DNA from: Escherichia coli
GTDB lineage: Bacteria; Pseudomonadota; Gammaproteobacteria; Enterobacterales; Enterobacteriaceae
Length of the DNA: 64,000 nt
NCBI RefSeq assembly: GCF_003334355.1
Contig: NZ_QOWP01000009.1
Reading direction: 5' to 3' (one strand)
This document shows positions 5,449-5,780 of this stretch, piece by piece. The notes under the pieces were generated by a model. It was not told where the DNA came from and did not search any database. It worked only from the letters and a program-made list of their open reading frames with translations. How positions within the stretch are numbered: position 1 is the stretch's first letter; every line of letters starts with the position of its first letter. Made by a program: the position numbers and the translations under genes.

Positions 5449-5543
5449 TCCTTTGTCCTCTTTGGGGTAAATGTCCCTTTCAACATCATTGACTTTCGAA
5501 TGCGAGTCAAATGCATTTTTTTGCAAAAAGTGTTGGACAAGTG

Positions 5544-5566
5544 CGAATGAGAATGATTATTATTGT
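5544..5566 (+). promoter_or_regulatory. Fur box overlapping the ryhB promoter (GAATGAGAATGATTATTATTG)
   Basis: Match to the Fur consensus GATAATGATAATCATTATC immediately upstream of the RyhB 5' end; coordinates approximate. Confidence 0.6.
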
Positions 5567-5569
5567 CTC

Positions 5570-5659
5570 GCGATCAGGAAGACCCTCGCGGAGAACCTGA
5601 AAGCACGACATTGCTCACATTGCTTCCAGTATTACTTAGCCAGCCGGGTGCTGGCTTTT
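5570..5659 (+). ncRNA. ryhB: RyhB small RNA (Fur-repressed, Hfq-dependent iron-sparing sRNA), about 90 nt with intrinsic terminator
   Basis: GCGATCAGGAAGACCCTCGCGGAGAACCTGAAAGCACGACATTGCTCACATTGCTTCCAGTATTACTTAGCCAGCCGGGTGCTGGCTTTT followed by a T-run; matches remembered RyhB; lies between yhhY and yhhX as in E. coli. Confidence 0.93.
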
Positions 5660-5780
5660 TTTTTGATCTTTCGTTCTCAATTTATCCACGGGAGTGCTTG
5701 TGTTCGTTATGCGCACTCCAGTAGGAACCACGTCCGCTTTGCGCTAAGGTGTAAATAACCACCTTAAAAAGGACGAAATC

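Follow-up and report, generated by a model that had tools for sequence, protein, structure and literature searches.

RyhB is the textbook iron-sparing small RNA. In the window analyzed here, i.e. the whole 64-kb stretch of Escherichia coli DNA, its gene is found between yhhY and yhhX, and a toxin-type islet lies one gene away. The locus raises two questions: whether it carries the ordinary ryhB gene with its control elements, and whether the neighboring islet has any bearing on ryhB transcription, which the first-pass annotation considered conceivable. The locus matters as a correct landmark. The copy is the reference sequence, and a variable Hcp-HNH islet can be placed precisely (2621..4961) beside an essentially invariant core regulator.

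The window represents ordinary E. coli chromosome and extends from yhhA-ggt to feoABC-yhgF. Over 25 kb it shares 99.9–100% identity with several human isolates, and it is collinear with K-12 save for a few indels. Coordinates of the features are given in Table 1.

Table 1. Features of the ryhB locus and the adjoining islet, with positions in the 64-kb window
Feature	Position	Strand	Description
Low-GC variable islet	~2621..4961	-	yhhZ, yrhA and yrhD; boundaries from comparison with the empty-site strain SWYH.B349aT, where yrhB abuts yhhY
yrhD	2804..2959	-	Third islet gene
yrhA	3054..3548	-	4-nt overlap with yhhZ; uninterrupted in the window, where IS1 is absent; disrupted by IS1E in K-12 (pseudogene)
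yhhZ	3545..4723	-	TssD/Hcp N-terminus and putative HNH nuclease C-terminus
yhhY	4960..5448	-	GNAT N-acetyltransferase; NCBIfam NF007527 equivalog (368 bits) and RefSeq annotation
ryhB sigma-70 promoter	5534..5563	+	-35 TGGACA (5534..5539), 18-nt spacer, -10 TATTAT (5558..5563); 10/12 matches
Fur box GAGAATGATTATTATTGTC	5549..5567		Overlaps the -10 hexamer; ends 3 nt before the transcription start
RyhB small RNA	5570..5664	+	95 nt per K-12 annotation (often quoted as ~90 nt); exact match to b4451, and Rfam RF00057
Conserved RyhB core GCACGACATTGCTCACATTGCTTCCAG	5603..5629	+	27 nt; includes the 9-nt seed GACATTGCT at 5607..5615
Rho-independent terminator / 3′ Hfq-binding module	5638..5664	+	7-bp stem (5 GC pairs), 5-nt loop, U9 tail
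yhhX	5781..6818	+	Gfo/Idh/MocA-type oxidoreductase; NCBIfam NF007574 equivalog (778 bits) and RefSeq annotation

The ryhB gene and its control elements

Alignment of window positions 5570..5664 with ryhB of E. coli K-12 MG1655 (b4451) shows identity at 95/95 positions, i.e. there is no mismatch within RyhB. The Rfam RyhB model RF00057 matches the plus strand at 5599..5663 over its full length (model positions 1–67 of 67), with a score of 83.1 bits (gathering score 55; E-value = 3.6e-14). This model represents only the conserved 3′ two-thirds of the RNA; the whole gene is placed by the K-12 comparison. A scan of all 64 kb at the gathering threshold gave no RNA family other than RF00057. The flanking genes, identified by NCBIfam and RefSeq, are yhhY and yhhX as in K-12. 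Within the yhhY-yhhX intergenic region a single mismatch to K-12 is present at position 5498 (G vs A), which is outside RyhB, upstream of its promoter and proximal to yhhY. Thus the E. coli K-12 RyhB, a Fur-repressed and Hfq-dependent iron-sparing small RNA, and the window copy are 100% identical in RNA, promoter, Fur operator and terminator. The differences are all outside the element: the change at 5498, and the IS1E found in yrhA of K-12.

Of 5426 complete E. coli genomes, all but one (5425) have the RyhB sequence, and in ~5359 it is exact, where exact refers to the band of at least 99% identity over 95 nt. The first-pass annotation had described a complete RyhB with Fur operator and terminator on the plus strand between yhhY and yhhX, and had called it a known conserved feature; both statements hold, and the interval it delimited, 5530..5665, encloses promoter, operator, RNA and terminator almost exactly. 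Agreement to this extent is well outside what chance would produce. As judged from its sequence, the segment 5534..5664 almost certainly represents an ordinary E. coli strain's chromosomal ryhB locus. The reading of this copy as a decayed or silent RyhB-like remnant has practically nothing to recommend it, as promoter, operator, RNA and terminator are all identical to those of the functional K-12 gene. This is the known and well studied RyhB gene with a Fur-repressed promoter and a terminator, identical to the K-12 reference.

Two long open reading frames overlap RyhB (5471..5758 and 5563..5724). These are regarded as spurious, with starts that lie outside or have no ribosome-binding context. 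No relevant report of RyhB as a coding or dual-function RNA turned up in a search of the literature.

RyhB begins with the G at 5570, and the -10 hexamer of the ryhB promoter ends 7 nt upstream of that base. By consensus scan this promoter is the sole promoter-like site on either strand between 4600 and 5900. For the Fur operator, each 19-mer of the 64-kb window was scored on both strands against the 19-bp consensus GATAATGATAATCATTATC. The Fur box at 5549..5567 matches at 16/19 positions on the minus strand and 15/19 on the plus strand, and these are the two top Fur scores in the 64 kb (128 kb of strand scanned); the next best score is 14/19. A second match of 14/19 is at 5543..5561 and overlaps the first with a shift of 6 nt. 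The promoter/Fur box block, ACAAGTGCGAATGA(G/T)AATGATTATTATTG, is almost invariant in 25 Enterobacterales loci. The identical K-12 sequence has been shown to bind Fur by gel shift and carries a 25.2-bit cluster of Fur sites centred at -15 (PMC2189734).

Other Fur-box-like sequences are found elsewhere in the window. The interval 46410..49340 contains feoABC, on the minus strand, together with overlapping 13/19 matches at 49316..49340, upstream of feoA, which makes this a second locus in the 64 kb with a link to Fur. A 14/19 palindrome is present at 25097..25115. Three genes lie between glgP and glpD (22576..25704), first two for PstS-family substrate-binding proteins and then a hypothetical one, and the palindrome is situated where the second gene meets the third; the K-12 glgP-glpD interval has only the small yzgL remnant. 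The nfuA gene is at 43175..43750.

Within the RNA, the seed GACATTGCT (GACAUUGCU; RyhB nt 38–46, window positions 5607..5615) is the exact complement of K-12 sodB positions -4 to +5, and the complementary sequence AGCAAUGUC spans the K-12 sodB start codon. The sodB sequence used is that of K-12, the sodB gene of the present strain being outside the window. A duplex prediction (RNAduplex) of full-length RyhB with 100 nt of sodB gave an unrealistic end-to-end duplex that was matched by 33 of 500 shuffles, and was dropped in favor of the exact 9-nt seed. The seed region also displays an imperfect tandem 9-mer at 5608..5625, ACATTGCTC followed by ACATTGCTT. One isolate out of 5425, the clinical E. 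coli 23AR0151, shows a third copy of ACATTGCTC, i.e. a 9-nt slippage expansion within the target-pairing core.

The terminator stem, AGCCAGC/GCTGGCT, occupies 5638..5656 and is followed by nine T at 5656..5664. It is invariant across 16 species except for one compensatory change at its base, A-U to U-A. A termination efficiency of ~80%, enhanced under stress, and stabilization by Hfq have been reported for the RyhB terminator (PMC4509938).

The minimum free energy of the isolated RyhB RNA is not lower than that of shuffled sequences (z = -0.59), which is usual for a small RNA with an open seed. With 16 orthologues, RNAalifold recovers only the terminator and a central hairpin that does not vary; one compensatory change is seen, and covariation is otherwise almost absent. 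The near absence of covariation is due to the invariance of core and terminator; support for the structure therefore rests on the Rfam model. The variable 5′ domain of these orthologues aligned too poorly for its stem to be evaluated.

The mechanism of RyhB action is taken from the literature on the identical K-12 sequence and was checked here at the level of sequence features. When iron is plentiful, Fe2+-Fur dimers on 5549..5567 would sit over the -10 hexamer and the stretch immediately preceding the start, and would block RNA polymerase. When iron is scarce, Fur would leave the DNA and the strong ryhB promoter would produce an RNA of ~90–95 nt that ends at the hairpin and U9 of the terminator. 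Hfq, bound to the 3′ U-tail and an internal AU-rich stretch, would present the single-stranded core at 5603..5629. The core is expected to pair with the translation-initiation regions of sodB, sdhCDAB, acnB, fumA, ftnA, bfr and messages for other non-essential iron-using proteins; pairing would block ribosome binding and recruit RNase E, and iron would thus be spared for essential enzymes. Identity with K-12 suggests that induction by iron limitation, dependence on Hfq and RNase E-mediated target decay apply to the present copy as well. No evidence that contradicts the RyhB explanation was found.

Conservation of ryhB and of its partner yhhY

The exact 27-nt core GCACGACATTGCTCACATTGCTTCCAG is found in at least 120 loci of Enterobacterales, Vibrionaceae and Aeromonadaceae and is thus conserved without change across three orders of Gammaproteobacteria. 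RyhB paralogues and orthologues, e.g. Salmonella RyhB-1 and RyhB-2, Klebsiella ryhB and ryhB-2, the two copies in Yersinia and Photorhabdus, and those of Vibrio and Aeromonas, have the same exact core and a similar terminator. The promoter block with the Fur box is also kept in the yhhY-linked copies of other Gammaproteobacteria. In contrast, the 5′ domains of the other gammaproteobacterial RNAs are divergent and often longer. In the sampled set the 5′ domain varies in both sequence and length (86–121 nt), whereas core and terminator are constant. Many species among the matches listed have two copies of the core, the second often unlinked; the window has the single yhhY-linked E. coli form.

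Among the matches listed, the divergent arrangement of yhhY and ryhB is kept in Escherichia, Yersinia, Serratia, Pantoea, Rahnella and Hafnia; the distance from the yhhY ATG to the core downstream of it is 150–212 nt. The yhhX gene is missing from the locus outside of the Enterobacteriaceae and, where present, is 102 to ~1500 nt from ryhB, again among the matches listed. In the window the yhhY ATG is 121 nt upstream of the RyhB start. The yhhY gene is included in a published list of the Fur regulon (PMC2710865). It is thus yhhY, divergent and Fur-linked, that has been the constant partner of ryhB in evolution, and not yhhX or the islet.

The half of the intergenic region nearer to yhhY contains an inverted repeat, TTGAC-N12-GTCAA (5489..5510), that is conserved in Enterobacteriaceae. 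It may represent yhhY promoter elements or an operator.

The variable islet and the direction of transcription

The islet that follows yhhY has a GC content of ~30% (0.29–0.36), compared with ~50% in its flanks. The N-terminal region of YhhZ (residues 1–147) matches TIGR03344 with 115 bits (cut-off 58.9) and PF05638 (E-value = 4e-10). Its C-terminal region displays a weak match to the HNH family PF01844 that spans 22 residues (positions 322–343, E-value = 0.013). YhhZ has been assigned to His-Me finger group 32 and to the Hcp1-family polymorphic toxins (PMC5714182). YrhA matches its own NCBIfam family, NF038335 (‘YrhA family’), and has no Pfam match.

At 80% coverage or more the islet is present in 3757 of 5426 complete E. 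coli genomes (~69%). An empty site, where yrhB is joined to yhhY, is found in 233 genomes, and in some strains ggt is joined to yhhY. The ggt-yhhY interval (2283..4961) is a polymorphic hotspot that may hold the full set yhhZ-yrhA-yrhD-yrhB, yrhB only, nothing, or forms disrupted by IS1 or IS5; IS1 truncates yhhZ or yhhY in some of the disrupted forms. The low GC content, the Hcp and weak HNH matches of YhhZ, the variable presence and the empty sites are in accord with the first-pass description of a horizontally acquired toxin-type islet one gene from ryhB. Toxin-type is a fair description, with toxin and immunity roles that are putative.

The islet may be compared with type VI secretion (T6SS) effector/immunity modules of the Hcp-ET1 type. 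Hcp-ET1 (Ma et al. 2017, as summarized in PMC6730261) is an Hcp fused to an HNH DNase and represents a class of T6SS effector. YhhZ resembles this class in its TssD/Hcp N-terminus and its putative C-terminal His-Me/HNH-like segment, and the islet resembles such modules in the small yrhA that overlaps yhhZ by 4 nt and in being a low-GC, variable block. The HNH match is weak here however, and YrhA matches only its own family; the likeness is at the level of class. No T6SS apparatus genes are present in the 64-kb window.

The first-pass annotation suggested that transcription from the islet side might be convergent with or antisense to ryhB, and RyhB could then be modulated from the islet. What speaks for this is proximity alone: the islet edge at 4961 is 609 bp from the RyhB start. 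The orientation of the genes is in conflict with it. The yhhZ, yrhA, yrhD and yhhY genes all occupy the minus strand, and their transcription leads away from ryhB. Because ryhB is on the plus strand with the islet upstream, a transcript that enters from the islet side would be a plus-strand RNA, sense to ryhB and antisense to yhhY. To run antisense to ryhB or converge with it, a transcript would need to originate on the yhhX side. By consensus scan there is no plus-strand promoter-like site in 4600..5533 and no minus-strand site in 4600..5900. Furthermore, presence of the islet makes no difference to the sequence of the ryhB locus in the sampled strains: promoter, RNA and terminator agree at every base between those that have the islet (the window and K-12) and those that lack it (SWYH.B349aT and S21EC). 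The suggestion is thus not borne out. Modulation of RyhB by islet-side convergent or antisense transcription is extremely unlikely, and islet-driven antisense control of ryhB is ruled out by gene orientation. No sequence-level connection between the islet and ryhB was found. Downstream of yhhY, the islet stands as an independent insertion that some strains have and others lack. Among its neighbors, ryhB has better-supported ties to the divergent yhhY and, through proposed read-through, to yhhX.

The yhhY gene has the same orientation as yhhZ-yrhA, and its control region also contains the divergent, Fur-repressed promoter of ryhB. A scan of the minus strand over the 236-nt gap that separates the end of yhhY from the beginning of yhhZ (4724..4959) revealed no hairpin resembling an intrinsic terminator. 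Since yhhY is Fur-linked and co-oriented with yhhZ-yrhA, and no terminator was detected in the gap, read-through from yhhY could make expression of the orphan Hcp-HNH module iron-responsive in the ~69% of E. coli that carry the islet; the chance of this is small.

Read-through from ryhB into yhhX

The yhhX gene is co-directional with ryhB and begins 116 nt downstream, and the consensus scan of 4600..5900 gives no promoter between the two. This arrangement raises the question of whether yhhX, too, is transcribed mainly from the ryhB promoter. Read-through of the RyhB terminator by ~20% of polymerases would give a Fur-controlled ryhB-yhhX transcript, and the locus would be a small RNA-mRNA operon and not a stand-alone small RNA gene. 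Such co-transcription has been proposed earlier (PMC4509938, PMC8896160). It agrees with the ~80% termination efficiency (PMC4509938), and yhhX is elevated under iron limitation, a rise that is lost on deletion of ryhB together with its promoter (PMC8896160).

Other observations count against the ryhB promoter as the main source of yhhX mRNA. A -10-like box, TA(T/A)GGT (TAAGGT at window positions 5745..5750), is situated ~30 nt upstream of the yhhX ATG and is conserved even where yhhX is 500–1500 nt from ryhB; yhhX therefore probably also has its own promoter. The box is preceded by TTGCGC and was missed by the consensus promoter scan. In addition, RyhB termination is reportedly enhanced under stress (PMC4509938). 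Finally, in a read-through RNA the sequence that follows the terminator, UUUCGUUCU (~5669..5677), is predicted to pair with the yhhX Shine-Dalgarno sequence AGGACGAAA (~5770..5778). The yhhX leader, 5665..5790, folds at -38 kcal/mol (z = -3.6) and none of 200 shuffles is as good. This predicted pairing would mask the yhhX ribosome-binding region in the ryhB read-through RNA and would limit translation. It is partly retained in a divergent Escherichia lineage (L085) and is not retained in other genera.

Taken with the evidence on both sides, the ryhB promoter as main yhhX promoter is a tentative reading whose chances are somewhat short of even. It adds to, and does not exclude, the preferred explanation of the segment as the ordinary ryhB locus.

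A further candidate in the yhhX leader, the hairpin or palindrome AAGGTG-N8-CACCTT at 5746..5765, was rejected as a conserved structure, being lost in other genera. Conservation in the leader is seen instead in the TA(T/A)GGT box and, around the Shine-Dalgarno sequence, in an ACCTT..AAGGA stretch.

The spacer between ryhB and yhhX is 70–175 nt longer in E. albertii (L013), in an Escherichia clade genome (L085) and in Citrobacter (L008, L070 and L101). Besides REP-like palindromes (GCCGGATAAGGCG...CGCATCCGGC), the longer spacers of these relatives contain another repeat-like block that is conserved; the spacer of the window and of K-12 is the short version.
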